Assembly (NCBI GenBank): GCA_977862235.1
Contig: OZ374562.1
Location: 682,001 to 746,000, forward strand
Direction: 5' to 3'
Length of the DNA: 64,000 nt
Source of the DNA: Dudresnaya verticillata
Taxonomy: Eukaryota
Below are positions 20,224 to 55,600 of this stretch, one piece after another; position 1 is the first letter of the stretch, and each line of letters begins with the position of its first letter. The position numbers and the translations under genes were made by a program. The notes under the pieces were generated by a model. It did not search any database. It had not been told where the DNA came from and saw nothing but the letters and a program-made list of their open reading frames with translations.

Positions 20224-20224
20224 G

Positions 20225-30220: not shown

Positions 30221-30225
30221 AAAGG

Positions 30226-30932: not shown

Positions 30933-31250
30933 TTAATGGAGATGCTGTGATAGTATAGAAGCGTACATAAATCCTATAAGAGAGCGCACTCTACATGTAT
31001 ATGGCCTACCGGCCGTGTAGACAGATGCGGTGATGGACATGTGACGGATGTGTGGCAGGACGTTTGACACATCTCGGCCGCGCTGCGGTTTGGATCTTCT
31101 GTGGCTGCCCTTGACATCTAGGTCTCCTCCTGTTCCGATGTACGCATTTAAATGAGCAACGAATGATCGGAAGGGCTTCCTTGCTCCCACAGAACGTACG
31201 GGGGAGCGAGGACAGAAATGTCCAAAGGCTTTTCGCCTTCTCATTGGTCC

Positions 31251-31335
31251 GAAGGGTTGGAGTGCCGCCATAATATGGCGGCACTGCAACCATAATGGCG
31301 ACACTGTCGCCACTATGGCGGCACTGCAACCCTTC
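31251..31335. repeat. Nested inverted repeat (cruciform-capable)
   Basis: GAAGGGTTGGAGTGCCGCCATA (31251-31272) pairs 21/22 with TATGGCGGCACTGCAACCCTTC (31314-31335); an internal partial copy lies at 31274-31291. Confidence 0.85.
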
Positions 31336-31387
31336 TATCCAATAAAATTATGCCAAATCATTTTACTCTGGGAACGCTACGAATAGA

Positions 31388-33293
31388 ATGGATTGCAAAG
31401 GTTCGCACGCAGAGTCAACTTATGTGTACTCTCCGTACCCATGCGTGCGTCTGTGTGTTCCACTATTCATACTTCTAGCCAGGGTTCGGCGCAAATCTCC
31501 GCATTCAGGGCGATCTACTTTGTTCCAGGCGGGTTTCGAGAATATGGGAGGCAGTACCGCCAGCTGTGCCCAGTTTCTTTCCACAAATGCGGAGGGGCAA
31601 GAGGTCGAGTATATCACTGCTGGCCTGAACTCAATTGTCCAAATGGTCGCCGTTATCGAGGGGTACGCGAGGACACAAACCTCCCTCCGAACGCTCACCG
31701 TAGGTGTGTATGTGTGTTGTACAGTGGACGGTCAAGGTAGAAGGGCATTTACACTAAGTGTTCCTGAGCTTCCCAATGCTAATTCCTCAAGTGTACCATT
31801 TCGCACCCCTTCATCGGTACCAACGGCCGTGGAACCTCCACGATCAGCCGCGGAGGATCGCTCGCTTCCCAGGACACCCGCTTCATCCATCCGGGCACCT
31901 GTCCCGGGTACGGCTCCCTCCATACGTCTCGTGTCAACGATACCAACGTTTCCTACGACACAGCCTGACTGACGCGCACCGACCAGAGATGCAATCTCCC
32001 GTTACACCGGCCACCATGTTTCCGGAAGGTGGTGTTGAGGACATAAATGTCTCAAGATGTACAAACAGTATATCTGGTCAACTCGTTCGGACGGGGTGGG
32101 GGCCCAATTTCATTCCCCACGGAAGCTGTGAAACGGTCAAGGTTGGGAAACAAGCCCCTGGAATGAGCTTCTTTTGCATTCCTCCCAAGGCTGTTGCTAG
32201 ATGTATGTCATTTCTTCTGGATGCAAGCTTCGAAACCCGACACACAACCTCTTCAAATGTTCGAAACATTGGTTCTGTTAATGGGCGTAGAGCTATTGCT
32301 TTATTGAATGTCATCTACAAGCGGTAGACAGGAACACGGCGAATGCGCTATACTTCGCTAGTTCCTAAGGATGTATGGGGTCATGATATACACATTCCAG
32401 ACGTACGCCTGGTAAAGGGTCCAAGAGGTTCCAGATTTTCCTGCAAACGATTATTTCGTGTGAGCGCTGATATTGGGAAGCCGATTAGCAATGGGAAGGT
32501 GATGAACGTTGGGATAATTGCGCTCATCCTCAACGATAAAAACCACTATAGTTGGGTCGAAGAAGAGCTCGAGAAATTCGCGAACGAGGGTTTGAATTCT
32601 ACTTGATGTCGGAAAACAGTAGCCTGTACCCCACACTGCAAAGAACTTCCGCTTCCATTGTGCATGGTGTTCAGCTCGCAAATAATCGATGATACTACAA
32701 GAATTGGGAAGGGGAGTTTGGACCCCTTCACATCGTGCTTGAAAGGGGTGCCTGTCCCGGAGCACAGTGCTGTCCTTAAGTTTCATAGTGTGGAGAACCC
32801 CAACGTTGTTAAGGAAACAGCATACAAGGGGCTCACGGTACAGCAATTATTGGACCGCCCAGTAATATGGAAGAAGAACGCGATAAGCCGGGTAATTGTG
32901 AACCATGACTTCCCAGATACCCAACATGACATAGGTACTGCCATTCTTGTGAACAAGAACGTGCATTTGGGTGGTGGAGGTGCTGCGCGGAACATGGACT
33001 TGTCTGCAGCTGTAGAATTATGTGATTTTAGGCCGTTCCGTTTTGGGACAGAAATGTCCCAAACACTTCGAATGGCTTTGGACAGCAGGTACACATTCCA
33101 AGAGTGGTGCAGTGCTGGAGAGCACGCCAGGAAGCTACGGAACCGGCATTTTAGCACGTTTCCAGAAATACCACGAGATATATGCCACAGTGTTGTTTTC
33201 CTGTGGGACGGTGGCCACAAAACTAACTCTTACCCAAGGCCGGGCTTAGTACGAAACAGTCTCGGCTTCGTTCGGAAACAACTCACCTTCTAG
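31388..33293 (+). pseudogene. Unknown protein gene, disrupted
   Basis: Consecutive + ORFs 31388-31972, 31758-32327, 32343-32606 and 32658-33293; the last three are in one frame, separated by single stops. Confidence 0.5.
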
Positions 33294-33469
33294 TAAATAG
33301 CTACTTGTACCGTGCTCTCTTTGAGGGTTGCCGGTTCTGAACTTCTCGTAAAGTTTCACGGGTTGAGCCTGCTTCCCCTGATACCACTTTTTATTCTATC
33401 ATTCTTTGCGGGAAATGAGTTCTCATTCTTTCTAGATAGTTTTTCATGTACTGTGTTGCGCGTGGGCAT

Positions 33470-34789
33470 ACTCGGATACGATCTGCAGTCAACCCCGAAG
33501 CCCATACACCTTCAAGGAACGTACATCAGGATAAGGCTACATAAACCATTCCAGCAGGTCTCCACGTATGGGACGTGAACCTGATGCAGACGTTTTGCAA
33601 GGTTAGTCCCTAGCACTTATGCTCGGTGACGGCGTATCCAACAAGCAGCGTGAACTGTTCCCGTTTTGCGAGGATGCGCGCATCCCTATTCCTGATGGCG
33701 AACATTTGGGGCTCAATATTATACTCCCTATCCGCGCCTTGCAGTTTGTATAGCACGGTACCTCCATTTCTACCTACTTCAATCCTGGATACTTCCATCG
33801 CTGTACCTGGTATATGGTTTCCAATTTTCCTGGTGAGCAGGACCACGGCACCGACTTTCAACTGTAGCACCTGAGGCGCGGAATTCTTGAGCTTGTCCTC
33901 GATGGTAGGCCACAAATGTCCCGAGCGTGATGCGTGTAGAGTTCCGTATCAATTTCTTCCACCCTGTCTCTGTTGTACTTCTCAACATCAACCTTGTGCA
34001 AGAACAACCCCGTATTTGTTCGGAATGGTTCTGGTCCTTTGCTTGTTTCGTTAATACGATCTATGTCCTCCTGTTTGAAGTTCCCGTTCCGGATGTGCTG
34101 CAGTATGTCTTAGAACTCGCGATCCGCAGACTGAAATTGGTTCCTTCCCAAGATTGTAACAATGCCAGTTCCGTACCCACTGAATGTCAAAACCCAAGGC
34201 CGTGACATGTGAACTGACCTGCTCTCCTGAGGCAGGGAACCCTCGGTGGCTATTGGACCGAGTTGAAACGGGTCTCCACACAGAACGACTTGGCGACCCC
34301 CAAAGGGCAACGCCGATGATATGTCTGAACAAGCGTATGTGCGTAGGACGCTGTCAATTGACTCCAGTATCTCTGAGGTCAGGAGGAAGACTTCATCAAT
34401 AACTAGGACCTTTATCTTGGCTATCTCCTCTCTTTTTCAAGCACGCCTTCCCACCTCTCGCACAACTTTCTCCTTCGTGACATTCCAGTTCGTAAAAATG
34501 TTGAAGAGGCTCTGTACTGTATTCCGTCCATGTGTATTGCGGTTTCATGATCGTTCGCACATGCCGCTACGGAAGGGAATTCTCCCAGATTTCTACGGGC
34601 GTATTGAAGGATTTGCTGCAACAAGTAAGACGTCCCACTTCCAGCTCCTCCCAACATGGCAATTGACTTCCCATTCTTGCATTCCTTCAGAGTTCGAAGC
34701 TGCGTAGGGTCCAATATGCAGGTTTGATAATCCATTTCCCCTCTGAGTGGAGCCTCTTCGAGTGTGGATATTCGGCGAGCGCCGACCAT
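33470..34789 (-). pseudogene. Pif1-family (SF1B) DNA helicase, disrupted
   Basis: Motif I GGAGSGTS (degenerate Walker A), LVIDEV, PFGGRQVVLCGDPFQLGPI, LQLKVGAVVLL, REQFTLLVGYAVTEHKC*G, GMVYVALS. Confidence 0.88.
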
Positions 34790-35379
34790 TCTTCTTCGAG
34801 TGTGAACTCCGGAAAGGGCTGCTAGGAGTACTCAGCTGAGTACACGAGGGGAAGCGGAATCCACGTAGTGGCTTCGAACGTCTCGTACGATAACTGTTTC
34901 GCTTGTTTGCTTTCGGCACTGTAATATGGAGGGAGCAGACGCAATGGCGCCCCTCACGTGATTTGGACACCCCCTTCTGGTTAATACCCAATCAGAGCGA
35001 GACATAACTATCCCACTCAGACTTCTGAGTAACAGTACCGATAGACAAGTAGTAATCAATCAACATTGAAGCAGAGACGTTGTACTGTATACAGTACAAC
35101 CTCTCTGCTTTCTTCGTAGTGCTGTATCGATCCACTAAGCTGTAACGGTCCACAAAGCGGACCATTTGTGACAATTGGATGTAACGTTTCAATTGTCGAC
35201 GCATATGCGTAAGCTAATGGATTGAAAGTCTCGGTTTGTTAACAGCTATAGTCAGAAGGGAAATTATATCGTCCCATAAAACATTCTTTCACTGCGCGCA
35301 CAGGCAGTATACCGCTACCTGCAACCGTTTCCATAACAAAGCTCCGCGCCTACTTGGGTGGTCTCATCGTTTACGCAAA

Positions 35380-38300
35380 ATGAACTGGGAAAGCGAGCAA
35401 GCATTTATGGAAGCAGCCCAGTCCTACGAGGTGAAACGTGCTGGGGAGAGAAGGATGGGTCGGGACATAAATGTCCCGACCATGCCATACCCTGAAATAT
35501 CTTCGGGTGCGGAGATCCACAGCTTCGACTACATCAAGCTTGCAAGAATTGAAGAGAGTCTGCTTTCACTTCACGAAACCTTAGAGGATGAGGAGTCCCC
35601 GAATATTGAGTCGCGGGAGAGGGCCTATAAAACCATTTATCAGAACAGACCTGGTCTAAATGAGCACAAGGGGAAGGGTGGTCGCCCACGAGCACCAAGC
35701 GAACAGAGTAGAAGGGATACAGTTCCCGGGTATATTTCAAGTCTGTTATCATCTTTTTTCGCAAGGTCTGGTGGTACTGAAGGATTAATTTCAAGGATTA
35801 AGGGACATTTGGAGTCTCACGGAGTTTATTCACGCACTGGTGGGGAAGTTACACTTGGAGACTATCTGAAGGCTGTGAAACAGATTCCGTAAAGCGATGG
35901 AAAGTGGTTTTTTGTCCTGCCTCGAACCCGTCTATTCTGCGTATGCACAAGGCTACCTTTTTTGCAAGTGGGGCTGTCTAATACGCTAGCAATGGACCGA
36001 CATTTGGTCAGCTCTTGGATCGGAATTCAGGGAGAGATGTTCTGCACTTGTGTTGGTATTACCCAGTTTCGTATTCACGGTGATGCAGGGTAGGATAATG
36101 AAACTTCATCCATTCACGGGGAAGGTCTACGAAGGGCTATTGTTTCTATCGCAGGGCACATTGGGATACCAGAACTCATTTTTGTTCAGATACGTGCTGC
36201 AGTTCAGGCAGGCTTCACCGATTTGGGTACATTTATGCCCCAGTGTCCAAAGGCAGATACCATATTCAACGGGATGGGATGCCTTCTTACACGTGCAGTG
36301 TCACCCTCACACGCCCATATACACTTCATTCTTGTGCGGATTGTCTCTTCATTTTACGTATGCGCTTTCTGTGATACAACACATACAGGAGGCTGTATGC
36401 ACACAGCCTTACTGCGCACAATTCGGGAAGATATGAAGGAACCAAATGGCCCCGTGCGACGTACAGAGGCGACCGTGCCGTCAGGGACAGCAATGTCCCA
36501 TTGCGTTTCAAGTCTACCACTATCTCCAGTAAATTGCTCTCGTGCAGTACGAGTGGATTTGAAGGTAGCTACAACAGCATTACGAGGGCAAGCTTTCCTG
36601 GTAATAGCACCCGGTTTTTGTAGCTCTTGTGGGAGCCCAAAGAATCCAAAAACCAAATTTGTCATGAAGGGTGTTATTATGTGCACCATTGGACCTTGTC
36701 AAATGCATGTGGAACAATTAGATGGCTCTAATGAGAAGTGTTCGGGGAAGGTTCATTCAGAAGGAAAAGATTATTGCCTATTTTTCCAGTCTCTGGTAAG
36801 TGCGGCTACTCACATCCTTCTCAGAAGGGAACCTACTGGGGTTCTGTTGGGGAACGGGACATTGAACAGTATCTTAAATCATTATCATTCTCAAGCAGAA
36901 AGTGCTGCGAGAAGTGGTGTCCTGCCAGGGGGTGCTCCAAGTCGGTCAATTGAGACACTTCATGTCATGTGTTCTGCAATGGTGAAACTAATGACTAAAA
37001 AGCCTCCTCCCTCCCTATTCACGTGCTCCCAATGTGTAAGCGATGACATTCCCATTCTGTGCATCGATGGAATTCAGCTTGGCTACTTGAAGTCGAAGCA
37101 GGTTTCACTGAAGAATGTGTACGAGAGATGTGATCCGATACCCGCGTCTCGATCCCTCAGGAAAATTCAAACGAAGTGGCCCCTCATAACATTCGTCCGG
37201 AGAGAAACAGTTGTGAAACTGCTTCTAAAAGCGCTACATGGCACAGAAGTGGAATGCAGAGCAGCTACAGTGAAAGATTTTGTGCTGTGTGTACGGTTCG
37301 TGTGTCCAGAGGCCATCCCTTCAAACGTTGTTTGAGTTTCAATTTGTGGTGCAGTTGATGGAAATTTCTCAAGAGACGAAGGTAGGTATAGATACCTCAC
37401 ACCACTTCGAGAGCTGACCCGAGTCGTTTTTCATCACAACTCTCTAGTTTACAGATTGTTAAAACCGTTGGGGACATTTCTGTCCCAGATCACAAATAAG
37501 ACAATGTCTACGTTCTTGAGTTCGGAAAATTGCGAAGAGGTGGTAGCATCGGTCTCGCACAAAATAATGCAGTTGGAATCTCCACCAGAAGGAGAATTGA
37601 ATTCAGCTGGTGTTATTTGGAACTTCTGGTATAATGCAAGTCCGCGATGGATTAGGTCTGGATGCAAGGATGTTTTAAGCTTATACAAGATGTTTCTGCA
37701 GGGATCAGTATGTCAGGTCATCAGGAGGACCGACATCATGTCCGTCCTACGTTTGGGTGCAAGATGTTTAAATGGGACTATCGCCGAGGTACAAGAGCTT
37801 TCGCGAAAGCCAAACATTCTCGCTGAGACTGAGGGTGAAACAAGCATTTTAGCGGCACATAGACTACTACAAGCCGGCTTGGGAATACGTTTTGCAGTGG
37901 AAAGGGATAGCAATGCCATGCAGCACCGACAGGACGGACGGACGATGCGTTCATGGCTGGGTCACGTGTTAGGGGCTTGTTACCGCCTGGTAATGGACTT
38001 TTACACGTACTACGATGCTCCCCTCCGCACAAGTTCTGCGGTTGAATACGCAGCGAAATGGAAGGGTTAGGACAGAACTGTCCTGAAGAATTTATTACGC
38101 CAACATCATTCGGAGATGAAAACCGAATGGAACAGTGAATTGGAGGAGGCTTTCCGGACAGCTCAATAATTCCCAGGGAGGGAACGAGTATGGCCTCTTC
38201 CTTTCAACAAAGATGAGATATCATCTTGAATTGAAGGGCTAGGGCCATGTTCAAAAGACTTCAAACAAAAGCAGAACCATTTCACGCCAGGTGTGATGAC

Positions 38301-38849
38301 CATTTCATGCCGATGTCGAAATCCAATCATGTTTGGTACGAAGGTACTATACCGCATTGAGGGACCAAAACCAAAATAGTTTTGAATATGGTGCTATCCA
38401 GATTTCCAAAGTTTCCAAGGTTACTTGTCTACGACTTCTCAATGTGACTTCTCTCGTGTGGTCTATACAGCAGCGCTATAAACGTTTTATTGTGGGCACT
38501 AGAGGGAACCACAATAGTGAGTGACAAGTTTCATGTCGGCAACCATACAGCTTGCTCGCCGTCCTACAATCCGAAGGTGTACACAGAACTGGATCCTTCA
38601 AACACAGTGTCTCATGAGCAGCGAAACAGTTCAATTCAATTGATTACTAGAACATTACGAAACTGCGGCCATGAACTATACACAGTACTTCTTGCCTACT
38701 ACACTATGATAGGAAATGTGAAGGCAAAAACTCGAGCTTCCGTCAGGTTTCAAAGCAGGGCTAAACTCATATCCGAACATGACCTTGAATGGGGATACTT
38801 CGAGTGTTTAGAAATGCGTTGTTTATGTTGTCCTTCCAACTCGCACTGA
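35380..38849 (+). pseudogene. SWIM-finger + KDZ (Kyakuja-Dileera-Zisupton)-type transposase, disrupted
   Basis: SWIM-like CAFC...GCMH; CSSCG; FTCSQC...LCIDGIQLG; CSKDF...FTPGVMTISCRCRNP; RFPKFPRLLVYDF; DKFHVGNHTACSPSYN...NTVSHEQRNS. Several stops and frameshifts. Confidence 0.78.
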
Positions 38850-38999
38850 AATTGTGTTATGATAACATGCATGTAATAAATGTATTGCTAGTGCTTTTAC
38901 ACAATTGCATGCATCTGTGCGTCTATCGTTCAGTTATCTATATTGAATATTCTTATGAATCGGACCTAAATGTCTTAAATACAACAAAGAGGACAACAC

Positions 39000-40900
39000 G
39001 GGCGCCACAGAAAAGCGATATCGCTTTGCTGTGCGTATGAGCACGAGACAGAAATGTCCTCCACAAATGAAAGCTTTCATTTATGGAGGACATTTTTGTC
39101 CCCTAGGGGTCAATGCACTTTGAATATGGAACCATCCGGACGTAAATGTCTTCCACAAATGAAAAGTGTCAACTGACTGTGGATATGGTGTTATGTGCAT
39201 ATATGAGAATGCGTTTCACCCATATGGGACTCATATGAGTGCCCCTAGGTCTCCTGAAAGTCTTTTCTTCTGTTCACGTCATTTTCGTCCCACTCTGCAA
39301 ATACACGTAGTATGCAATGTATTTCACCAAATGGTATCTGAGAACGGCCGTTCGCCGACCCCCGGGTGAATCTCGATTCATCTGTGTGCAGCCATTTCTG
39401 TCTCACATGTGAGAGACAAATGTCTCTCTTGCCTCGCCAATGGGTGAGGTAAAAGCATTTGTATGTGATGTATCGAAACTTTGTCTAAATATCTACACAT
39501 CAATAAACAACTTCAATTGTTACTAATCTACGTATGCACATGATGCATGCATCATGATGCATCCATTATGTGCCTACATACAACAGTAGCATTATTTCAC
39601 CGACCAAAACAGCCACGCCTGGTTGTGTGTGTTAGTAGAATCGTATGATTTCAAATCATAACAGTAACAATGTTATATATCATAGGTTACTAGTCAACAG
39701 CTGTCCAAGATTCGATGCAAACGTTCATACGTATACGTATATATATATGTGTATACAAACTTTGCATATGCCGCGGAATGGGAAGAAATCTTTAAACTGT
39801 ACGCTCAACCGTCATGAATCATGTATGTGTCAACATCGCCAGACAGACGTCTGTGACGTCTGTGACGTCTGTCTGGCGATGTTACGTACGTACAGATATA
39901 TGTACATCTGGTCATGATATATGATCTGTCTATACATGTATGTATGAAGGTGACGGTGATAATACCATCTTCACATAGATGTTATGGAATGATATGACCT
40001 TTTGAAGTCATGATGCATATGAATGTGCACATTAATTTGCATGCACATCATCACAAAACTAGTTTTGCAACCATGGCCGCGGTTACTGTGCCCACAGTTA
40101 CGAAGGTTCGTACAACTGGCTTGCAGCACCCGGAGGTAGTCGTATTTCATCGCCTGTAAACTATAGTAGAGATGTATACAATTGCGACTTTATTTAACCC
40201 GGCCCATCTTTATATTCCCGCATAAAACTTAAGTTACCAACATCCAACAGAGATTACCCCAAAATACTAGAGTTTAAAATCTTGGATATGTCATATTGGA
40301 GTGACGATATTTTTGTGTCGACGCAACTGAAGGATCCTTCAGACCGGGACATAAATTTCCCAAGGCCCTGGTGGTCGTGGACAATCCAGAGAACCTTCAG
40401 AAACGTTTGATAACATATATATAAGATCGCTCGAGCGAATGAGAAAATCCATATATGCGCATAGGGCAATACTGTCTAGACATGATGATCAATATGCGCT
40501 CACGAAATCAGCATCTATGTGGTTATAACCGGATACATCCGTCCGGATACCAGTCATATGACCGGGTCATTTGAGCCGCACGCGGTGCACCGTGCTACTG
40601 AAATATCATAAACTAATCTTAATGTTAACATGTTAACATGATTAATTAACATGAATCCATAACCTCAGCCATGGTTTCATGGGTTCAACTTGATTTCATG
40701 AGTTCAACCTGCAGGTATACCATAGTAACAAATGATCATTTGTTACCATTTGTTCGGACAAATCCCCAGTTCTAATATAGTGTTGACCGCAAAAGTGTCT
40801 CACTCTTTTATCAGGAATTAATGTACATGTACAACTTTCTCAACGTTGAACTTTCACCACAGTCGCGACTTCTGCAACATGTTCTGCAAAACAATTGCAC
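39000..40900. other. AT-rich non-coding palindrome field
   Basis: Perfect palindromes at 39012-39027, 39065-39082, 39539-39556, 40054-40067, 40622-40639 and 40725-40746, plus a hairpin with 20-bp arms at 39832-39883. Confidence 0.85.
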
Positions 40901-42280
40901 CGCAACCATGTTTGTGACACAGCGGGCAGCCGGAAGATTTATTCTCTAAAAGGTTGGACAAGAATATCTTCGCTCCAGTATGTTATGGCAGTGTTAACAC
41001 AGATAATTCTCTGCACAATACGAGTTGCCCTCCCACACATTCCAACCGTGTACGCATTGAAATGATTCATGAATCCCGAGAATATTCTCGGGCTAAGTGG
41101 TTGCACGGCCGGCCGCATGGGTCCACTCTCAGTTCTCAAATCTTCGTGGCCTCTTCCTCTGTCGCCTTGGGTTGCGACGCGCCTCGCGCGGATCAGCCTG
41201 AACGGCCGGCTCAGAAATCACCGGTTCATGTTCGGCCGCCGCTGCCTGCGCCAAACGTGGCGTACCACTTTCCTCTCCACCCTGAGTATCTGCAGCCGCG
41301 TTAGGCCTGGCAGGAGCTCCACTGGGTCCCACACTTACCGTCTCCGACCCACTCTGATTAACTTGAGATATCTGCTTCGAAGCCACGAGGTCTGCCTGGG
41401 ATATGTGTTCCTTCCACTCCAGATCCAGCTTCTCAACCATGTCCTACAGCACGACTTGAAACTGTGTCTCTCCGCTTGGATGCTTTACTTTCTTGAGGGT
41501 ATCCGCACCATTCTCATCAACGGCCACCTCCAAACTGTCTACTAGCTCTAGAGCTTCTTTAGCTGCCGGAAATGTAGGTGATTTCTTCTCCTTGCACTCC
41601 CGACCGAGAAGGTCCTGGGACATTTCTGTCTCTACAGATGGCTTTGGTGCTTTCGATCCGCATATCCCATCTTTGGTACCAATATCTGCACCAGACAGCG
41701 TGCGCTGTTCCCGGAGAGTCCTCTATTCTTCACAACAACATCTCCATCATCATCACCCGTTAGCGACGCCGTTGACTTCTTCTCTCTGTCTTCGACTGCG
41801 TTCGAACCCGAATCTTTCTCGATCTCCTTCGGAGTTTCAACAGCACCACCGGCTGGGTTCGAAATCCAGTAGCGACATATGAATATATACTGATACCCAT
41901 TCTCACGCCATTTGACATAACAGCTGTGCTAGAAGTCGGTAGCACAGAGACGGCCTGTGCCCCGAGCGGAGTAGCAGCAGCGTCACGAATCGTACCACCA
42001 CCTGGCGGGATGCAGTTGCGCGACTGCGGGAATCGTGACATTATTCCCGCACTTTATTGAGTGCGCGTACCACGGGACATTTCTGTCTGAAGAAATGGTT
42101 TGCCTGCTGTACCAGCATCGACTGCTCAGGAACCACCCCCAGCATCCCTCAGCGCTAGCATGATACTAGCCTTCCCATTCCTACTTCCGACGGCACGCAT
42201 CCCGCGGGATTCAGCATCATCAGGAGTAGAGTCCTCCTTCACAGTTTCAGCAGCATACTTAGAACCTGCTCCTGGGCAAA

Positions 42281-43407: not shown

Positions 43408-43573
43408 TCCTTCTCAGATGGAGGCATCTCGATTTCAGCAGGCCCGCGTTCTTCCGCAATGGCCTCACTCCGAAGAATGGACACCCACGGATCTCCATAT
43501 GCCTGTTCCTCAGACGTATCCGGCATGATGGTCTAGAATGTTTTCCATACGACGCAGGCCGCTTTGGCGCGGA

Positions 43574-43735
43574 CGGGATGCAGCACGTAGGTGCTGATTT
43601 CACTTCGGCGCGCGCGCGTACGGGATGCAGCTCGCAGGTGCTGAGGTCGCTTCGGCACGCGATCGTGCGGGATGCAGCGCGTAGTTGTTGATGCCGCGTC
43701 CAGGATGCGCTTCGCAGCGCGTAGGCACTGACTAG
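43574..43735. repeat. 47-bp-period degenerate tandem repeat
   Basis: CGGGATGCAGC at 43574, 43621 and 43668, each followed by GTAGGTGCTGA-like sequence. Confidence 0.75.
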
Positions 43736-44133
43736 TACCTCGAAGTTAGCAGCCCTCGCAGCGTCAGTAGCACGTACGTTATCTCTCAAGAAGAGAGCAG
43801 GCAGGTATCGTGGAGGTTGAAGAATGGGCGGAGAGCGCGCCCGTCATGACGAAACAAATGGATACGACTAGCACAGGGAAAGATGGAGTTGGCATCGAAA
43901 ATTTGTGCCATTCGTAGAGACGGGCGTGAAAAACGCCTGTATAAAACAGGCGGCATGTCCGCCAATTGGGCACCTTCGCGCGCGCGCATCGAGCGCGGTC
44001 GCGACTAGGTGCAGCTGTACCCAGCGCGTCGGCTCGACAGCTGCATGCAGCTCAGTGCACTGTCGAGTGTTTATGGACGCCGCAATTTAGATTCGTTACC
44101 GACGACGTATGTGAGGCCGGCCGCAGCGGGCCC

Positions 44134-44290
44134 GCTTATAGCTCGAGACATTTGTGTCCCACTGGACGACCGGCTTTGCGGATCCCATGGGCTACGGAAT
44201 AGATCCCTTCCCGACGACTTATTTGGTGCCCAGCTTACAGCGAGACAATTGTGTCCCACTCGAGGCCCGGCTTTGAGGATTTCATGGGCT
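44134..44290. repeat. ~60-bp direct repeat pair in a divergent intergenic region
   Basis: 44134-44193 matches 44233-44290; each copy contains a GAGACA-N4-TGTCCC motif. Confidence 0.75.
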
Positions 44291-44589
44291 TTGCAAGCGT
44301 CAACTGCTGTGCACGGCAATTGGCGCGCCGGCGTGAACGGCATGGTGTATAAAGGTTATTCGACGTCTACATGTTTACCCGCTGCTCGGTCACCACACAA
44401 CACACCGACGTACCCAACACACCACACCGCCCTGTCCACCACACCAACACACCGCCCACCACCTCCCATCGAAACCAACACACCGTGTCGACACCGCACG
44501 AGTATCGGCCGGCCGACATACCGCCCGCGCAAACCCACCCTCCAACACTCCTCTGTGAGGGACCGCATCGGGATATCGCACGTGCGATA

Positions 44590-47346
44590 ATGAACGCCAA
44601 AGAGGGCGAGAGCGCCCGCCAACACACCAACCAGCCTTCGTACCAAGCATCTAAGTTTCAGAAGTTCTACCCTACAACCTACCGCAGGATGCCCACGTTC
44701 AAGGCGAGCCAGAGTCGTGCTCCACCCCGACACCTTACGGATGCGGAGTTTCTGGAAAACATCATTGACAGGAACCTTTCGTTGACTGGAACGGCCCGTC
44801 AAATAAGGAGTCGCGTTGACCTACGTAACCCGGTCCCAGTCGCAATGAGGCTCATAGAGCATATTCCTGGCTTCGGCTCCTCCTCTCGAGCTATGGACAT
44901 AATCAAAGTGCTTCACATGGGGGAAGTGTGTACCACGAAGGATTTCGGCGACAGCAGCCCCTAATCATTACTGAGCCCGTTTTTTGTCTGGACGGTCAGG
45001 ACATTTATGCCCCGAACCATACGAATCACCGAACGGCATGTGTGAGAGACACTTTGTTTCCCATTGTCCATGTTCGGGTGATTACTGAAGAGGAGTTTCG
45101 TGTTCTGTATCGGGCCGTAAAGAAGGAAGAATTGGGTACTGAAGGTTCAACAGGAGCTGTCACCCGCGAGACGATTATGAAGCGAGTGAAGATTGCTCTC
45201 AAAGTTCTTCTTCTGATGAGTAATACTCAGGTTAGAGTCGTCGACCGAGTTTACGTGGTTACAACAAGTAGCACTCGTCCGTACGTTTGTCCAGACCGAC
45301 TCCAGTGTCAAACGTAATGTGGGACGGAATCAGCCCAAGTACGGAGGGGCAGAAACACTGAAGAAACGTCTTCAAGGCTCAGAAGATTTCGTGGGAGGCA
45401 CGCAGCACTTCTTTCAGGATCAGAAGTGTGCCTGCCATAATATCCGCACAGTGGCCGGAGCATATTATCTCATTGAGACAGAAATGTCCCAACCGTTACC
45501 TGAACTTGGGGATCGGACTTCCATCCTAGACGCTCTCATGTTCTGGGAGCAGTGTAGCAAAATGCCGCCGTTTACGAGTACGATGCTTACAATAGCAGGA
45601 CAAGTACATACCTCGCACTTGAAGTTCATAGTACAGCAGTGTGCTATTGGTCTCGAGAACAAGACAGGAATGGAGTCTAACGGTGCCCTTTTGGATCCTA
45701 TTCTATCCTCCGCTGCCAAAACCGCGTCAGATGGAGACTACTTAGATGCCTAGTACATGCGAAAGCATTCCTCTGGCCCAGGAGATCCGCGTCAAGGACT
45801 AGAAGTGAAAATGAATCCTCGAAGACGGAAAGGAATCGTATCATACAATGAAGGGCAGTCCTTGCCTGCAGTTTATCGAAAGAGGAAGACGGCGGCAAAG
45901 AAAGCAGCATTAACCCGGAAAAGTAAGGTTACAGCAACGGAGTCGGGTTCAGGGTACAGCGATGGAGAAGTGAATGAAAAGGAAGGAGAAAGGGAAGAAG
46001 ACTCAGACGTTCACGTGCCTATTTCAACCACTAGTGCTGGTAACATTTCGCCTGGAACAGGAGGTAATAGGACATCGATTGGAAAAAGCAAGGAAGGGGT
46101 TGCAGATGAGTCTGATGATGAATCCGATAAGCAGCCCTTGAACAACCTTGGGGAGTTCGACCTCACCATTCCTGACGCCCTTGAACAGATTCCGGCTGTA
46201 ACCCGAGAAGAGCTGAAGAGTTCATATATCAAGACGGAAGATGGTGGAAGAGTTGAAGAAGAAAACAAAAGGGATGACCTGGCTCGGGACAGAATGTCCC
46301 AGTCGGCTCAGGGAAAAATCAGGACAGAAATGTCCAAGATTTCTCAGACACAGTTCTACCCGCAGGTGATTTCGTGAATGCCAATCCAGGCACCAAAATT
46401 CAGGCCCAGGACATAAATGCCCCGACGACTGCCGATAGAACCGCTCCTGGTACAATAACTGAAGCAGCATCTGATCCACGGGATGAAATTATCGCAAAGC
46501 TTCGGAAAGAGTTGGATGATCTACTGATCGTTCTTAGGTTACTTCCGCTGCGCCGGCGACAACAGTAATTCCTGAGAATGTAATCAATCAAAAAGTGCAG
46601 GAGAAGTTGGATATTATCCTCAGACAGATGCACGGGAACACGGCGATGGATCGCATCCGAGCAGCAGAAGCAGAGAAGCTTAAATTGCATGAAGAGCTTG
46701 AGAATGTAAAGCAAGAATTGCAGGCTCTGGAGTCTCAGGCACAAAGCTCTAGTGGGAGGGCAAGAAACCTTTCGCTTGAAGTGATGACAAGGGAGGAGCT
46801 TATAAAGTTGCAGAGGGAAATGGCTGAGAAGCTGAGTTGATGTCAGTACATAAAATCTTTCTTTGAAATGTACTTACACTGTAGTGCTGTAGCAACCTCA
46901 TTCAACAACAATTGTAAAGCGATCATCCCAATAGTGGCTGAGAAATTTGTGTCCCACCGCGCGCAGCTGCGCACTAGCGCGGCAGCGCGGTACATCATCG
47001 CGGACTGTGTTGCGCTTCCCACAGAGAGTTTTGATAGGTCCTTGGTTAAACGTTTTGGAGACCCCATTGAAAGTAAAGGAGACGGTCTGTTACCAGTTTT
47101 GACCCCCGTTCCCCTGGCGATGTCAGGGAAGACAACTTTTCTGTCTTTCTTTTGAAATGGTGCCGACGCCTTCCCATAGAACGAACAGCATATACGGCTC
47201 CGTACCGTTCGCAACTGGAAAAGGCGATGAATGCCATCCGTACCAGACCGCGTTCGGCTAAAACAACAGTTACTCGCTCTGAACAGAAACCTTTGCGACG
47301 CGATGCCACATTCTCCATAGTACCCGCTTTATTGTGGTTAATATGA
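44590..47346 (+). pseudogene. Long disrupted gene of unknown function; possible ParB/Srx-like N-terminal domain, acidic linker, coiled coil
   Basis: Chain of + ORFs; EGFRRQQPLIIT...CLDG..NHRTAC...VHVRV; heptad-like EKLKLHEELENVKQELQALE. Confidence 0.45.
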
Positions 47347-47727
47347 CAGAACAGAGCGCCGGGTCGCCACAGCAAACGACTGCGTCCCACGAAGCCCCAG
47401 CTCGACCAACTTTACTGGCACTACAACCACAACAGGCCATTTCACAGCACGCTCTACTATCCCGGCCAGCACTACTGTCCCCAAAGAGACCGACAGCGCG
47501 AGCCCATCCCAGTCCCAACCACCGGAACCTCCAGTACACTTCGCCAGTTACCTTAGCATCCCCATCACAGCCCTCCCCGCTATACGGCCATCATCATAGA
47601 TAACACGGGCATCGACACTGCAACGAAACAACTGAGATCTCCCCGCAGTCCTCGCCGAGAGTGCCAACAACGGCAACGCGCATCGGCGTATATCAGAAAC
47701 GTTCGCGAGATGAAAGCCCAGAAGTCT

Positions 47728-49116
47728 TTAAAGTTTCTCCATACAGAACGCTTCGTCTTCAGAAAGCAGCCGCGCAACCACAAGGCCAGCAAAACAAATG
47801 TCAGTTGCTTCTGTGTCGCTAGCGGTTCCCAACTCACCCTCACTTATGTTCCCACGATTTAACGCAATCTTGAGATCCTTGCTCAAGCGCAGGACGTCCT
47901 TGGACCACTGCGGAGCATGGGAAGACTTGACCCCTATCATTTTCCCGTCTGCTATCTTCTGCAAGTCCACCGTGATCTTGAGGCGGATCAATGAGAATGC
48001 GAAAATGCTGATTCTGTACTATCCCGGGCGTCTTGCTCTGGCGGAATCTCTGGAAGCACCGCCTCCCTGTTATACTGGAGGAGATTGGAGCGGTAGAACT
48101 CCGCAAATGAACGTGCCTCGGCTTGTGCTCTGTCCCACGTCCCTTTCCAGCAGACAACATACTCTTCCGCAATCTTGAACGAACCTGTTGAAAACAACTG
48201 CCTCGCAAGTTCCATATCCGGGCTGCAGGGCTCATCACTCTCACCTGATTATTCCCCATCGCTTCGCATCTGTGTAGATCTCTCGGCAACGGACTGCCTT
48301 CGTTCAGCATTAATGGTTCTCCTTTGTGCAGTTTGTCGCCCGTCATCTCGGGCGCGATAGAGCAGATGAGCATTCGGTAGCGCGGGATAAAATGTCTTGA
48401 CATGTTCGCAAGCAAAACAATGAAGGCAAGTCATCACGTTTAGTACTTGCCACGTTGCAGAGACCCTCAAATTCAGAAGGCACAACTTACAAACTGGGTC
48501 CTGACAGCTTCGATTGCTCTGCCTTGAGACTGTGCAATCTCCGAAAACAACCTAATCGGTTTGTTGCTCCTACTCACTTTATCCAAAGTGACCTTCTTTC
48601 TCAAAAACGTTTTCGCCTCGCTGGCCGTACATGGTGTTCCGTTCTGTTGTAAAGCGAATGTTGCAGCCTCCAGAACGATGGCGGGAGGAGCTAAAGAAGA
48701 TCCGCTTGTCGCTTCGAAGAGCCGCATCCCCTTTCCGTGTCCACAATCTCAAGGTTAGTGTAGAACGTGATGTAGTCGACTGCAGCCTTCAGGTGTTCGT
48801 GAATGCTGGGAGTGTTCGGCTTTGTCGGCTTAGCACCGAGCCCTACAGACGGGAGGAGAGCGAGTTGATTGTCGATTGACTTCAGTGTGTTCATTATATC
48901 CTCATGGCGGGAGGTCTGACGCTCCTCGGCCGCCTCAAGTTCTCTTTTGCGCGATCTCTGTAACTGCTCCCACTTCACTTCAGCATGCATCCATAGCTCC
49001 TCTTTCCATTCCGAAAAGCGGCGCAGAACGCCGTCTAAAGCGCTGTTAACGCCTGTGACGACGTCCCTTCCCCCGTTCAGCACGGCATCCTTGACCTGAT
49101 GCATGGCTAGAATCAA
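47728..49116 (-). pseudogene. Disrupted unknown gene (helical/coiled-coil)
   Basis: Chain of minus-strand ORFs at 48691-49116, 48473-48727, 48249-48485, 47988-48215 and 47728-47991. Confidence 0.4.
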
Positions 49117-49413
49117 TGTTTCAGTCCTGTTACGGTTTGCAGGCGGACGCTTGGTGCTTTTCTAAATTGTGGGCGCCTGGCTAAGGTCACGCGAACCAGA
49201 TGCCTCACTTCCACGGCTCATGCTGCCAGATGAAGAGAAGTGCCGCGGCACTTCAAGCGCTTGTGAACCTCGGGGTTCAGAAAGCGGTCAAGTGAAAGAG
49301 ATCCCTGGCTTTTGCACATCTGTGAGACACTGTCGTGAAGGTGGCTGAATACAAGCGAGCAACTCGCTTGAAGGTCACTTTGTAAACAAAGTTTTGTTAA
49401 CGCCCATGCCCGG

Positions 49414-52400
49414 GTGCCGACTTTGGGCCCAGACAGCCTGCTTTTGCGAAGCGAAACGTTAACAGCCGCGACGGAAGGCTCCACAACAGAAGATTCCCTT
49501 CACGACGATTGCACATTTTTCGTTCCGCGTCGCTTTCGTTCCGCGGCCGCAATCCCCAGAAAAGACTTTGATCAAGTGAAGAATGAAATAGACATTTCTG
49601 CACCCGAGGTTACAATCTCGCGAGTGAGAACGTCGTTCCTTCGTCGTTCCCTCAGCTGCAGCTGCCGTATCCCATTATCTCGTCACCGCAAGCGTACGGA
49701 TTACCCAAATCATCCCATTGTGCACTCTCTTCCAAATCTTGTAGGAATCCCTCTGAGCTCCCCCCACGCCATCACACGACACATTCCAGAGTACTTCTGC
49801 CCGGTCTGCAAGCGTAGATTCACGGACAAAGTCTGCTTTGAGAGTCATGTCCAAAGGATTCACGGCGGACACTTGGGTGATTCCGGCTCCGAAAGCCGCC
49901 AGCACTTGACGATACAGTCCCGGCTTGCTGTCGATCAATCTCCTTCTCCTTGTATTCAGCATTGCCAAGAACGGCAGGAATGTGGCGATCCTTATGTCTT
50001 CAGTAGTCCTGCGGACGTTCCTCCGGTGCGCCATGGAAAGGACTCATTGCCGACACGACCAGTCTCTTCGGGACGAAGGCACACTCTCTCAGATAATGAT
50101 GCCCCGAACGCAGTTGAACCGGGCGAACAACCCAACGCCGCCGCACCGAGTGAGTTCTCAGCCTTTGAAAGCTTCGGAGAGGCAAATGCCCTGGAAACCG
50201 ATCATTCGGCCGACTGTCAGGGCTGGTATGACCTCAGCAACGCCGTCAGCGGGTAGATCTGTCATACTGCCAGCAGAGCGCCTTTTGAAATAGCAACCGA
50301 GCTTGCCAACGGCAGTAGAAGCTGCGACGTGGCCCCAAACGCCAGAAACAGTGAAACGCTTAGAACCAACGTTGCTTGTGAGTTGTTTCGCTTCTATGAT
50401 TACTTCAGCGATGCTGGGGCTGAACTGTATCCCACGTCAGCTCCTCCTCGACCTACAGTCTCCGCACTGCTACCAGCGGTCAAGAATGTACTGCAGTGTA
50501 TTGCATCGCTAACTGCATGACTCTGGGCGAATCGGAAAGCCTGTACTCCCTTGTGGCCTCGCTAGAGCGCGCCCACGTGGAAGCAATCCGTCCGGTCTCT
50601 CGGCAGTTTGGACGACCGCAAGCATTTTTCGGATACCTTGACGCGTTGAGGAAGAACACCGTTCGAGAAGAAGGATGGAAGATGGCCTTCATAAAGTCTC
50701 AATACGGAGAAAACAGAACAGGAGTCTTTCTCTCAGTATATGAGCTCTTCATGAGAGAGCTGTCCAAAGCAGGTGACGTGAACGCCCTGATTCGGTTCCA
50801 AAAAGAGTTTAGGGACGGCCAACGAGTTTTCTCTGCGCCTTGGAACTCTTCGCGCATGGAAAGGTACTAAATGGTGCTTGACCAAGCTTCCATCCCGCAC
50901 GCAGGAGTCCGCTCTCCAGGAAAGGAGAAGATCGTAGTTCCCGTGGACTATTAAGTGATGGGCATATTCTGAGTAGTTCGGGAACGCAAACCGCCACACA
51001 GGGTAGGGTTAGATTTCCAACGATACGTGGCCAGTCCGAGGAGTGGTTTGAGGTAATGATTGCTCCAACGATTGACACTGGGGCTCTTCGGCTAACTCCA
51101 GACGCAACCAGGCGAGAGCACAACGAGCTTTGGCACAGAACGACCTTCTTAGCGTTCAAGGACTTCATAAAGAAGTCACACGGAGGCATCGAAATGGGTG
51201 ACGTTGTTCTGTACCCGCGACTCGGGATGGGCGTATTCGACTACGTTCAAGAGCGTCCAGCTTTAGGACTGAAAGGTCACGGGAGCTTTTGCCATTGCTC
51301 TCGTTGCATCATGCCCACAAAGCCGATGAAAAGAAAGAAACAGTGTGACGAAGTCCATCCGAGGAACCGGCACAAAACAATGTCAAGTGGTGAGAGTTCG
51401 TCCATTCGGTCACGCGCAACAAGTATTGGTTCCCGCTGCCCTGGTAGCCAAACCGAAGGAGAAGAAAACAGGCGATCGGAAACAACAGCGGTGTGAAAAT
51501 AACACAGATCTCGCCATAACCGTGGCCTGCACGGGATGCGTGCAAGACATTGCAATGCCAGCTTGACGTGGCAAAATCGAAACGAGAAAAGCACGGCAGT
51601 GGTGTGTCTTCACGTCGTCTCAGGGAGGCCAGAGGTTTTCTCACTGAGCAAAGCGCCCTAGACTGCCCCCCGGGGCTAGCGTCATTTGCAGGAGCCGGTT
51701 CCCATCCATTTGGACTGTACGATTCCATAGGATACGACACGTTACACGCGTTCGAGCATGGAATAATCCGCCAGTTGACGGACGACGCTTTCCAGGCCTT
51801 CGAGAGAGCACCGCAATATCAAGGCTTATCGAAAGGAGACGTTGCTTCTATAGCCAATCAACGGATTAAAGACCTCCCGCCCGCTGCTCGTATTCCAAAA
51901 TGGGCGCCCTTCAGGCGCAGATCAGACGAGAAGCATGCCGGGGTTACCGGAAAGTACAGTCGCGAACTGGCGCCATTTCTCTGGTATTCTCTAATGGGCA
52001 TCTCACATACCGTCACTCCAGATGATGACGACGTCGTACAGCTCATGCTGAAATCCGACCTTCTTCAACGCAGGCTCCTTGGAATCAACCAAGGTGTTTC
52101 GTATGCCTACAAAACGGAAGATCATATTGAGGAAGTCGGCAGGCTCGGCTTCGAGGTTGGGAGAGATATCGCAGTCATCTTTGACTGTCAAGTAAATACC
52201 AAAATGCAACGTACCATGTGTCACATAACCAAGCACCTGTTGGACTTTGGATGCTTGCGGAGAGGTGGCACGGATGAGAACGAAACGATGCACAAGCAGA
52301 CAAAAAAGGCTTATCAGTGCACAAACAAGCACATTGTCAACATCGCCCCGCAGCTCCTCAGCGCCAGATCATCGCTGTGCGTGGCTGAAGGTGGCTTGGA

Positions 52401-53152
52401 ATCGGGCTGCTTTGCCAAACAAACACGGCAACTGCTTCTCACAAGAGATCCGATTATCGAGCCGTCTCAAATCCAAACAGCGGATCAGGTTGCTTTGCAT
52501 TCTTCAAACAGTGAAAAGGAGCTAATATGGGCGGATGAAATGAGGAAACTTGTCCAAACTTGCACATCGCCTATCGATGCCGAAAAAGAGATCGAAGCAG
52601 CTGAGCATCCGTCCACAAACATGCAGCTGTGGTTTTTTAAAAAAGTCTGCGCGGTTCCGGGCAAGGTTTCCGTGGTCCAATGAAGTTGTGTGGCAAACAG
52701 TGTATGCCGGCAGAAACGTGTTTGGCGCTTCAAATAGAAGGGATGCACTCGAGTACTGCATAGACGGTGACAGGCATACACGCATCCTTCAAGCTATTTT
52801 CAGCAATCACGAGGATCAAAAGAGCAGAATTGCACTGGTTCGGCGCCTTCATGAAGTGGCGCCAGAACGTGGCAATGTCAAGGTAGTTGACATCTACAAT
52901 AATAGGCGTTTTGCATACGTCATGCAGAGACAGGATACGAAAGTAGACTGCGTTCCTTCTTGCAGTTTCATTCACAGTGTCCTTCTAGTTCCCGACCCCT
53001 GGACGGTGGTCAAAAACTTCTCGCGAAGTATTAGAATGAGTGACATCAATGACACTCCGCAAATCCGAAAGCTCATGCGGTTCTTCGAGGTCGCGGGGTT
53101 CAAAAAGACGTCCTTAGGAGCCCAGAAGATAGACGATGAAATCGCAAAATAG
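49414..53152 (+). pseudogene. C2H2 finger + Plavaka/CACTA-like transposase, disrupted
   Basis: CPVCKRRFTDKVCFESHVQRIH; YPRLGMGVFDYVQERPALGLKG..CHCSRC; IGYDTLHAFEHGIIR; KMQRTMCHITKHLLDFG...TDENETMHKQTKKAYQCTN. Confidence 0.8.
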
Positions 53153-54438
53153 TAAACCGAGTACAGGAATAGCACCTGACGGCAGCGGTGGGTTCAACAA
53201 TGCATTATACCGACGCTGAACTTCGCCCGGGTGGAGAACGCAGATTCTTGGGTTTAGTCATTGTTTCGGGATCATCCCCGCAATAAGACCTGGTGTGTTT
53301 CCTGGCCAGGGCAATGCGAAGGTCGGGTGGTTCCAGGTACCCCTCAGAACTCCGCGACGGTCAAAAGACAGCCCAGCGCCGGCGCGGTGTGTTGAAGTTG
53401 CTCTGTTCTGCCGCTCTGGCATCAAAAAACAGATGATAGGTAACACTATTAACATACCGGAGTTCCACAAAGGCCAAGTGCCGCCAGCCAATAGCCGGCT
53501 TTCCAAACATGCCCAGTAGTGGAACGACTCCTTGGGAGTGGGAAACGTTCCTTTTATCCAAGGAGGGTTTTATTTCCTCCATGGGGTGCCCAACATACTC
53601 CCTGATGATGTACCGCTACCGCGCGGTATCGCAGTATACCGCAAGCAATCTGCAGCTATATTTTCAGCTGAAGCCTAGGTGTTTCTGAAATGTACCAGCA
53701 TCCGCAATATTGTTGATTCTTTGGTAAATTTCTGCGGGACAGAAATGTCCCGGCATGCATATATACAAAATGTATACAAAATTACTACATTGGATATGAA
53801 TGCCATATGGATGCTGGGATATTTCTGTCCCACTGCGTTTTATTAATAGAAATTGACGGCATTTGGGCCCACCGGTAAGAGGAACCAAGGGAAGTGAAAG
53901 GACTGCTGCCACTTCCCACAGCTCATCTAATATAGGATACCATACGAACATATGTTCAAGTCCTCAAATTTGACAAGGGACATTTATGTCCCGGTGGCAT
54001 TTACGTGAGTTTGCGCGCGCAGCGCTGCGATAACGAGCCTGTTACCTCGTTAACCTAGGTTGCGCTACGGTACCCTAAGGTAGCGACCTCGCGCGGCGCT
54101 ACTGTACCTCCATGCTCAGGCTACGAGCACGCGACTTGTCCTAACTGCGCGCCATCATGTTAACGTGGTGATCATCCTCGCGTCGTCCCGCGTCACATGC
54201 AACCCGTCAACCAAACTCGTGCACCGGACGCATCTCCCACCTGCCAATACCCAGTCCACACAAAACTGCTTCGCTCCGAATCTAATTCGGTCCCAATTCC
54301 GGGAACAAAAACCCAACGCCATCTTTCGGTCGCTCGACCTGGTGCGATCCACTTCGCTTGCGCGTCCGCCATTGCACCTCGTCACGCCGGCCACAAATCC
54401 AACAAATTCCACCCTTCAACTGCCGCATCACACGTGCA

Positions 54439-55600
54439 CTAACGCTTCCCATTAGAGTTGCTTTCTCCCTCAAGAAGTACGGTACGACGCGGAGCCTTTC
54501 TGGCTCGTCTGCGAACAACCTTCTGCTCCTGATCGGAGTCTGTGACCGCAATACTTTCGCCTCCCAATGGCGCCATTTCACCCCTCGGAGCGCCAGATAC
54601 ATCGCCTTCCACATCTGACTCACCCACGTCGTCATCCCAAAACGCTGCACTGTGAACCTCAAAAACTTCCTCATCTTCCAGCAATGCTTCCTCTATCTAC
54701 TTTAGTGAGTACAAAGACGGAAACACCCGGCTATCTTCTAAGGATTCGAGAGGCGGGTTGTCGATATCCTTGTACTGTAGCAGTTTCATGTTGTTCTTGT
54801 ATAAAGTCTTCGCGTCCGGGTATTCCACGGAGAGGTCTTGAACAGGAGGGAGGGTATCTGGGATGTTACGTAGAACCACAAAGTTCCTCCCACCTCGCTC
54901 TGTACCCACCCGCACACCCGGTTTGTCGAATAGCCTCCACGTGATCATTCCAGCACCTTTGACACGGGCTGCCATGGGTAGATCCACAGAAAAGGGCACA
55001 CCACCTTTGAGGACCAAAATGTCCCCTGGATGCATTCTATTCTTACGCTGTCCCTCTGTGTAGTACGACATGGGAAGAAGAGCTTTGCGGACTGCGCGTT
55101 GAGGCTGGGTAACTGGAGCGATATCGGTCGGTTCAACACGTGTAACAGCTGCATACTGCCGATTCCACCCTATCTGGCTCAACAAGTGTTGCGGGGGGAC
55201 AACTTCATCACCCAAGTACGGGAAACAACGATACAGCGGCGTGATTCCTTCATCAATGAAATATGCATTCGCAAATCCGCCTTTAGACGGAAACAAGTGT
55301 AGCATCTCTAAAGCACCACCGCGTACGGCGGCCAAACGAGACCCCAAAAAGACCAAAAAGACCTGTCGGATTTCACCAAAAACTGGCCAGAACCTAGAGC
55401 GGACCTGCGCGCCGGTAGCAAGCGTGGTAGAGCGGGAGCGCGAAGACGAAGTCGTGGCCAGAATCTGTGATGAGGACAGAAAATCGCCAAGTCGGGGGTT
55501 CAGTTGCTAACTTTACTCCCAACCTCTGGCGGGACAACTTCGTACCTTTTTCGGCTAAGCCGTAGTATGTGGCCAGCCAAGTAGTCCCAAAATCGGCCAT
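54439..55600 (-). pseudogene. Unknown protein gene with in-frame stops
   Basis: ORFs 55394-55600, 54697-55356 and 54439-54684 are in one frame, separated by single stops; ATG at 55600; acidic then basic C-terminus. Confidence 0.5.

Follow-up and report, generated by a model that had tools for sequence, protein, structure and literature searches.

We investigated a short DNA motif in a 64-kb stretch of the Dudresnaya verticillata genome (hereafter the window; contig OZ374562.1, positions 682,001 to 746,000) and found that near-palindromic copies of GGACA-N4-TGTCC are scattered through a single DNA transposon, likely of the KDZ group, both within and between its genes. The enrichment is a real and well-bounded feature. 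Taking self-marking and architectural roles together, it is likely that a putative element-encoded binder reads these copies as double-strand sites. For the narrower proposal, that the motif is a self-tag read by a putative element-encoded dimer and probably serving anti-silencing, we consider the chances to be evenly balanced.

Motif enrichment

A sequence scan of the window located 11 exact copies, spanning 31,210–53,978, and 17 copies with one mismatch, 15 of which lay between 32,039 and 55,011. Of these 28 copies, 26 (11 exact) lay inside the host transposon net of its nested Gypsy and Plavaka insertions (19,403 bp; hereafter the net element). All ten exact copies listed by the first-pass annotation, which was made from the sequence alone, were recovered on rescanning, and an additional one was found at 36485. 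Among the 17 near copies that it listed, 13 carry one mismatch, those at 36227, 39412, and 46941 carry two, and the one placed at 46286 is a variant with a 3-nt spacer at 46287, in ORF6; the positions were off by at most 1–2 bases. Oriented copies gave the consensus RRGACA-(G/T)AAA-TGTCYY, a 16-bp near-palindrome whose flanks carry zero information. A spacer of 4 nt was found in 26 sites, compared with 0–2 sites at the other spacers in the range of 2–10.

Dinucleotide shuffles of the net element (n = 200) gave means of 0.055 exact copies and 0.76 copies within one mismatch (maxima, 1 and 4), far from the observed 11 and 26. The eight coding frames contained 7 exact copies and 14 within one mismatch, compared with 0.005 and 0.32 after codon-order shuffling and 0.12 and 1.3 after synonymous permutation, in which the proteins are kept; the observed values were reached in 0 of 1000 permutations. 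Likewise, GGGACAGAAATGTCCC with two or fewer mismatches had 18 matches (0.05 expected), a number reached in 0 of 100 shuffles. The first-pass annotation had named a codon- or dinucleotide-preserving shuffle as a possible explanation of the counts; neither the codon-order, the synonymous, nor the dinucleotide shuffles account for them. Its view that the signal lies at the DNA level was borne out by the occurrence of copies in two codon phases and both orientations and by the failure of synonymous permutation to reproduce the counts; a protein-level motif is ruled out on the same grounds.

For finer tests, we used 31 sites in the net element with a matrix score of at least 14.5. The matrix gave 41 hits, and the ten dropped were a site outside the element at 1816 (score 15.9) and nine weaker hits, two of them in the nested Plavaka (12.2 and 9.7).

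Confinement to one transposon

The window is a nest of transposons, and the motif-bearing block is one decayed DNA transposon, spanning 38.3 kb, with nested elements (Table 1). The motif follows this element and not the continuous 24-kb block described earlier: what carries it is a 19.4-kb net element, and the nested stretch at 46,993–53,610 holds no copy. That nested Plavaka has 0 copies in 6,618 bp, whereas 11.4 would be expected at the density of the host element (P = 1e-5), and copies flank it at 38 bp on the left and 125 bp on the right. The 44.6 kb of the window that lie beyond the net element show no motif enrichment: they hold 0 exact copies and two one-mismatch copies, at 1816 in the outer flanks and at 24081 in the nested Gypsy, as expected by chance.

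Along the net element, the 31 sites lie ~570 bp apart and are placed more evenly than random: the largest gap is 1,470 bp, compared with a random-placement median of 2,334 bp (P = 0.008). The first site is 752 bp from the left end and the last is 1,470 bp from the right end; therefore, they are not subterminal repeats, and subterminal transposase repeats are ruled out by these positions. No recurrent subterminal motif was found near the element ends, and no tandem array contains the motif. Helitron 3' hairpins were also rejected, as no common CTRR end follows the sites. At 39,047–39,100, two opposite-facing copies form a 54-bp near-perfect palindrome, with a related unit at 39,139.

The host transposon is delimited by terminal inverted repeats (TIRs) and an 8-bp target site duplication (TSD), GCTAAAGC, which is exact on both sides when the PIF/Harbinger insertion in its left copy is left out. 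A search for 8-mer pairs returned 130 chance pairs, but the GCTAAAGC pair sits on the edges of a TIR found beforehand (E 1e-7 to 1e-8). PIF-like terminal words occur as a further pair (GAGCATCTCTA and TAGGGATGCAC, at ~15,096 and ~18,497); each is beside TAA, and together they straddle the left end of the host, possibly through chance or as an older MITE.

The genes of the element are ORF1, Pif1, a transposase-like gene, Ulp1, ORF6, and ORF9, all of them broken. Ulp1 also occurs on Zisupton elements; here, it has a long C-terminal tail, in which the frames were assigned by eye, and three 47-bp tandem units (43,567–43,707) lie upstream of its domain. The transposase-like gene is disrupted by frameshifts and, over 1,004 codons of a single frame, by 6 stops; its homologs P0001–P0003 were found at E 4e-126 to 1e-75. 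Its motifs run in the order SWIM-like Cys/His, CIDG, YDF.C, D.FH, and NT...EQ, with the first Asp ~450 residues from the rest, an order that we take to agree with that of KDZ transposases. Because these motifs fit but PF18758 (KDZ) had no match in Pfam scans of P0001–P0003 or of the transposase pieces in the window, membership of KDZ is likely, not proven. Zisupton is reported to have inverted ends and an 8-bp duplication, and one Dileera family a duplication of the same length (PMC12730594).

Reading frames and origin of the sites

Coding frames contain 18 of the 31 sites (10 in homology-supported frames, 5 in long open frames, and 3 in frames assigned by eye). Nine of these sites are in phase 0 and nine in phase 1, and none is in phase 2 ((2/3)^18 = 7e-4); phase 2 is also absent from all 10 sites with homology-supported frames (0.017). 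The peptides are GTEMS and GTFLS in phase 0 and DINV and DILV in phase 1, whereas phase 2 would give Gly-Gln/His-x-Cys-Pro. Sense TAAA loops, which would make a stop in phase 0, were in phase 1 in 3 of 3 cases, and sense GAAA loops were in phase 0 in 6 of 6.

Three sites in conserved blocks (32762, 36227, and 37472) align to homologs without gaps; others lie in variable linkers, where indels cannot be judged. The flanks of the copies share nothing. We infer that substitutions gave rise to the sites, which then persisted for as long as selection acted on the genes. The tiny selfish palindrome that the first-pass annotation offered as an alternative is not supported, as the sites in conserved blocks show no indel and the flanks no common sequence. 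More generally, a motif without function is very unlikely, be it a very small palindrome that moves, the footprint of an insertion, or the outcome of gene conversion or biased repair: a few copies do lie in local duplications (44146/44243 and 39046/39088) and one has a 3-nt spacer, but such an origin sits poorly with the gapless alignments, with sites that avoid stops and one of the codon phases, with the sharp stop at the element borders, and with the likely persistence of sites at orthologous codons of proteins only 34–40% identical.

Form of the site

The first-pass annotation labeled the motif a hairpin, which is unsupported because the stems do not covary. A compensatory A-T at pair 2 was seen in 1 of 31 sites (1.2 expected), and departures at the outer pairs were equally often G.T (5) and A.C (5); the purine/pyrimidine tolerance at the outer positions goes without compensation. 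Native arms formed 151 pairs, no real gain over the 148 obtained after arms were permuted between sites (P = 0.18; folding energy, P = 0.49 and 0.33). The extended stem pointed out at 35458–35481 is present, but stem extension beyond 6 bp is in general not above chance, with 52 of 186 outer pairs complementary (p = 0.20). As G>A or C>T changes make up 30 of the 53 departures, decay blurs the covariation test somewhat. The sites had no Rfam match.

A role of the sites as hairpins of single-strand DNA or RNA, e.g., as priming or pausing signals in Pif1-driven unwinding, is highly improbable. The 6-bp arms, the GAAA-like loop, the element-encoded Pif1, and the use of both orientations (18/13) would suit such a role, whereas the lack of compensation, stem extension, better native pairing, and Rfam matches, together with the fixed sequence and spacer, does not. 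Half-sites of 6 bp, a set spacer, and a fixed sequence are the features by which dimeric proteins recognize double-stranded DNA, and an operator-like double-strand site fits better than a hairpin. In the literature, motif strings were found only in two Streptococcus mutans preprints; in the accessible text of one, ComR probes contain GGGACATAAATGTCC exactly, the same 15 bases (10.1101/291088). We take this match to be most likely a coincidence that illustrates the operator-like form of the site.

Candidate binders

Among the proteins of the element, ORF1 would be the most likely binder, with ORF6 and the transposase as the next candidates. ORF1 is favored because it is the constant neighbor of the transposase and has a basic core: in the window and in 17 of 20 homologs, its last 340 residues (C-terminal) carry a net positive charge. 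In its structural model (pLDDT 74), weak matches to SAP- and EIN3-like folds (Z 3.9–4.1) fall in a helical part, and there are SH3/KOW/Tudor-like barrels (Z under 4); such weak fold matches may mean only a common arrangement. ORF1, which by eye was the sole candidate for a TET/JBP protein in the element, is not recognizable as one: an alignment of 21 sequences showed no conserved HxD, Pfam gave no match, and no 2OG fold was among the matches listed in its fold searches. Unrelated to the main motif are 20-bp units (ATGGCGGCACTGCAACC-like) in inverted and tandem arrangement upstream of ORF1, at 31,243–31,343.

A ParB-like pattern was noticed by eye in ORF6, for which the single-sequence model has a pLDDT of 46; no homolog and no Pfam, NCBIfam, or PDB match was found for this protein, and its fold searches were empty. 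The pattern is of interest because PAG3, a protein of a red-algal giant transposon discussed below, is ParB-like and lies beside inverted-repeat arrays. ORF9 had no Pfam, NCBIfam, PHROG, or meaningful PDB match, and it was rejected as a 2OG oxygenase as no match was found.

Relatives of the element

A full HMMER scan found 20 homologs of ORF1, whereas a word search with ORF1 found none. Named homologs come from Gracilaria domingensis and Eucheuma denticulatum, which points to a red-algal host. ORF1 stands beside the transposase in three of the four checkable places, namely the window, locus L001, and G. domingensis FGB62_124g012/g013 (consecutive gene numbers); at locus L002, only a decayed transposase piece remains beside Gypsy remnants. 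Two related loci were found in metagenome contigs, and none in the viral contigs or prokaryote genomes searched. In a tree of 21 rows (at least 300 residues), ORF1 of the window groups with four G. domingensis proteins (100/99) on a long branch.

All five G. domingensis homologs (KAI0560123.1, KAI0560124.1, KAI0560280.1, KAI0558022.1, and KAI0566663.1) contain the peptide pattern [GER]T[DY]MS, which would be a footprint of the motif, against an expectation of 0.09 and a count reached in 0 of 300 shuffles; none of 20 other homologs contains it. Two of the G. domingensis footprint positions align exactly with the window sites 33046 and 36227, and two lie in unalignable linkers. These peptides predict a sister motif with a KAYA loop, and the motif likely persisted at orthologous codons despite the protein divergence noted above. 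At L001, four GGAC(A/G/C)-N6-YGTC(C/A) palindromes lie within 150 bp (117–268), just downstream of the ORF1 homolog, and 0 of 500 shuffles reached three. Spacers and loops that seem to differ between relatives fit drift together with an element-specific binder.

These differences also bear on whether a host protein, such as a transcription factor, insulator, or chromatin opener, reads a motif that the element has hijacked. The searches run found no recognizable DNA-binding domain in the element proteins, and the ComR probe shows that such a site needs no special origin. However, the motif is not enriched outside the net element, and relatives seem to differ in it (predicted KAYA loops in G. 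domingensis, a 6-nt spacer at L001), which makes a hijacked host factor quite improbable.

Proposed function

Confined to one mobile element and fitted to its reading frames, the motif looks like the self-recognition tag suggested by the first-pass annotation. Sites would have arisen through point changes wherever the proteins tolerated them, and selection would have kept them while the genes worked; later insertions, never under this selection, would lack the tag. With sites ~570 bp apart, a bound factor would be able to extend over the entire element, and the effector would be the Ulp1 SUMO protease of the element or the binder itself. SUMO has a role in silencing. We prefer anti-silencing because of the even coverage, the SUMO protease, and a motif that seems to differ between families, and because moving KDZ elements are reported to tolerate large motif-free insertions. 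A bolder version is rather doubtful: a second code written over the element's own genes, laid on codons as bacterial matS or uptake sequences are. In it, ORF1 would represent a DNA-binding family new to red algae, changing in step with its site and bringing in the SUMO protease to keep the entire element free of silencing. If true, sequence-specific anti-silencing would have been invented independently outside land plants.

Alternatively, the transposase or a helper might bind the sites to compact the 19-kb element and join its distant ends, in an enhancer- or matS-like role for which MatP/matS and KorB operators offer an analogy. The same confinement, even spread, and operator-like form would be expected, and the element is very long and has no recurrent subterminal motif near its ends. 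Nevertheless, we regard a purely architectural role as unlikely, as the ends and TSD were retained despite 18.9 kb of motif-free insertions, the L001 transposase gene lacks the dispersed motif, and giant KDZ elements are reported, in the accessible text of PMC12477816, to be still moving after such insertions.

Several points weigh against an element-encoded self-recognition tag. The even spread suits an architectural role equally well. The motif statistics rest on a single element copy, the matrix that defined the 31 sites was trained on the motif block, and the outside site at 1816 passes the cut-off used for them. ORF1 has no Pfam, NCBIfam, or PDB sequence match, and its best fold match (Z 4.7) has an rmsd of 4.9 over 116 residues, with none at Z 5. 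The G. domingensis peptide class was chosen after looking, and its footprint is a protein-level one; an unrestricted class gave 6 occurrences vs. 3.2 expected, and peptides from the window's own loops gave 3 vs. 3.56 expected in 25 homologs. Furthermore, the comparison comprises only four independent positions (P0004 and P0024 form one 90% cluster, and P0004 and P0005 have a common position), and P0021–P0023 entered it unnamed. The L001 palindrome statistic is post hoc, and L001 has ORF1 and the transposase but no motif dispersed in its genes; L002 has none either. The dispersed tag is therefore not general to the family.

Comparison with known systems

The element would work like the VANDAL/VANC system, by analogy, but is not a member of it. 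According to the accessible text of PMC5735166, VANC binds element-specific motifs of 8–9 bp in non-coding tandem repeats, which differ between related families. Both systems thus combine a large DNA transposon, accessory genes, and many short element-specific motif copies, and here too the motif is enriched in the element and seems to differ between families, the family difference being indirect. In contrast, the window motif is a 16-bp near-palindrome, mostly single and often in genes (18 of 31 sites), and the transposase is different; the same text never calls the VANC motifs palindromes. We exclude membership because there is no VANC domain (no Pfam match to DUF1985 or DUF287 in the block ORFs or the ORF1 homologs scanned) and because the sites are dispersed in coding, not tandem non-coding, DNA. 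The first-pass annotation also stated that VANDAL elements carry a Ulp1-like gene; the words "ulp" and "sumo" are absent from the accessible text of PMC5735166.

Among red algae, the accessible text of a preprint on giant Plavaka elements of Bostrychia describes PAG3, a ParB-like protein lying beside tandem inverted repeats that it is proposed to bind, and reports PAG genes on Zisupton elements too (10.1101/2025.02.11.637652). As in this PAG1–3 system, the window has a giant DNA transposon with inverted-repeat units as proposed self-binding sites. However, its sites are spread over all genes rather than arrayed in tandem beside one, and unlike PAG3, which joins a ParB-like part to a 2OG oxygenase, the window element had no detected methylase, SET, or 2OG-oxygenase domain. 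ORF1, ORF6, or ORF9 could be PAG homologs, which may bear on novelty.

The TIRs, 8-bp TSD, and ~1,200-residue transposase resemble those of KDZ elements (Zisupton, Dileera, and Kyakuja; PMC12730594, PMC12477816, PMC9297572), as do the giant size, accessory genes, and nested insertions. Unlike the KDZ elements described there, the window element has Pif1 and ORF1 as cargo and no TET/JBP gene was found in it, and a dispersed internal motif goes unmentioned for known KDZ elements in the accessible text of these three papers. In literature outside subscription journals and Repbase, we found no report of such a motif in a KDZ element.

Bacteria have dispersed operators such as matS (bound by MatP), KorB operators, parS, and DNA uptake sequences. 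As with these, short palindromic sites are scattered through a defined DNA domain, often in genes; here, however, the domain is a eukaryotic transposon, and no homolog of those binders was found.

According to the accessible text of 10.1101/2025.02.11.637652, no transposon other than VANDAL is known to bind its own sequence and modify it; a tag that covers a whole KDZ element and is embedded in its codons points to a second system of this kind. The tag also bears on the persistence of giant transposons in red seaweeds, a group in which silencing has hardly been studied. The finding supplies an exact site and three candidate binders, and the tag is a practical marker that separates the element's own body from later insertions.

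Other features of the window

Table 1. Features of the host transposon, its nested and neighboring elements, and its motif sites (positions in the window)
Feature	Position	Strand	Remarks
Left TSD, GCTAAAGC	15159..18169		split at its TAA by PIF/Harbinger insertion
PIF/Harbinger element	15,164-18,163		TIRs, TAA duplication, Plant_tran E 3e-54
Whole host DNA transposon, likely KDZ (Zisupton/Dileera-like)	18170..56481	+	TIRs and 8-bp TSD
Left TIR, 49 bp	18170..18218	+	40/49 identical to right TIR; blastn E 1e-7 to 1e-8
Nested Gypsy	18649..30932	-	LTRs 91-94% alike, flanks ATAAT/TTAAT; 0 exact, 1 one-mismatch motif
31 motif sites	31209..55025	18 in +, 13 in -	
ORF1, broken, red-algal family, candidate binder	31545..33290	+	motifs 32039, 32762, 33046; start by eye
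Pif1-like helicase, broken	33480..34990 (ends approximate)	-	PF05970 E 1e-16; motif 33908
Likely KDZ transposase	35218..38834	+	stops, frameshifts; motifs 35463, 36227, 36485, 37472, 38070
Intergenic motif cluster	38961..40361		38962, 39046, 39088, 39412, 40347; weaker 39138, 39390
Ulp1 (Peptidase C48) SUMO protease, broken	41100..43413	-	PF02902 E 3e-11; motifs 43015, 42398, 42075, 41618
Two motif copies (44146, 44243) in 50-bp direct repeat	44145..44257	-	
ORF6, broken, coiled-coil end	44590..46840	+	motifs 44999, 45476, 46322, 46409; 3-nt-spacer variant 46287
Last motif copy left of nested Plavaka	46940..46955	-	
Nested PlavakaB-type element	46,993-53,610	+	termini CATCA..TGATG, TA duplication; motif-free
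Three motif copies just after Plavaka (53737, 53817, 53978)	53736..53992		
ORF9, broken	54450..55506	-	motif 55011
Right TIR, 49 bp	56433..56481	-	
Right TSD, GCTAAAGC	56482..56489		exactly abuts TIR edge

PlavakaB is defined by termini CATCA..TGATG and a 2–3-bp duplication in the accessible text of PMC12730594, and the termini and TA duplication of the nested Plavaka agree with this definition; its transposase was identified by eye and had no Pfam match. The element is inserted into a palindromic target, and at 47,300–49,200 on the minus strand it carries broken frames divergent from its transposase, with no Pfam match, which may be an accessory gene. The PIF/Harbinger element comprises a transposase plus a convergent second gene. 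In the nested Gypsy, the left long terminal repeat (LTR) has ~870 bp (18,990–19,861) absent from the right LTR. A second Gypsy lies in the opposite orientation at 59,600–64,000 (plus strand), and a 27-bp stretch beside the LTR is common to both Gypsies. On the minus strand, a 634-codon frame (4,951–6,852) ends in a zf-4CXXC_R1-like finger (E 6e-4, below the curated cut-off), and a 706-codon frame (11,845–13,962) contains a Thr-rich tandem repeat (11,863–12,232) and an internal duplication.

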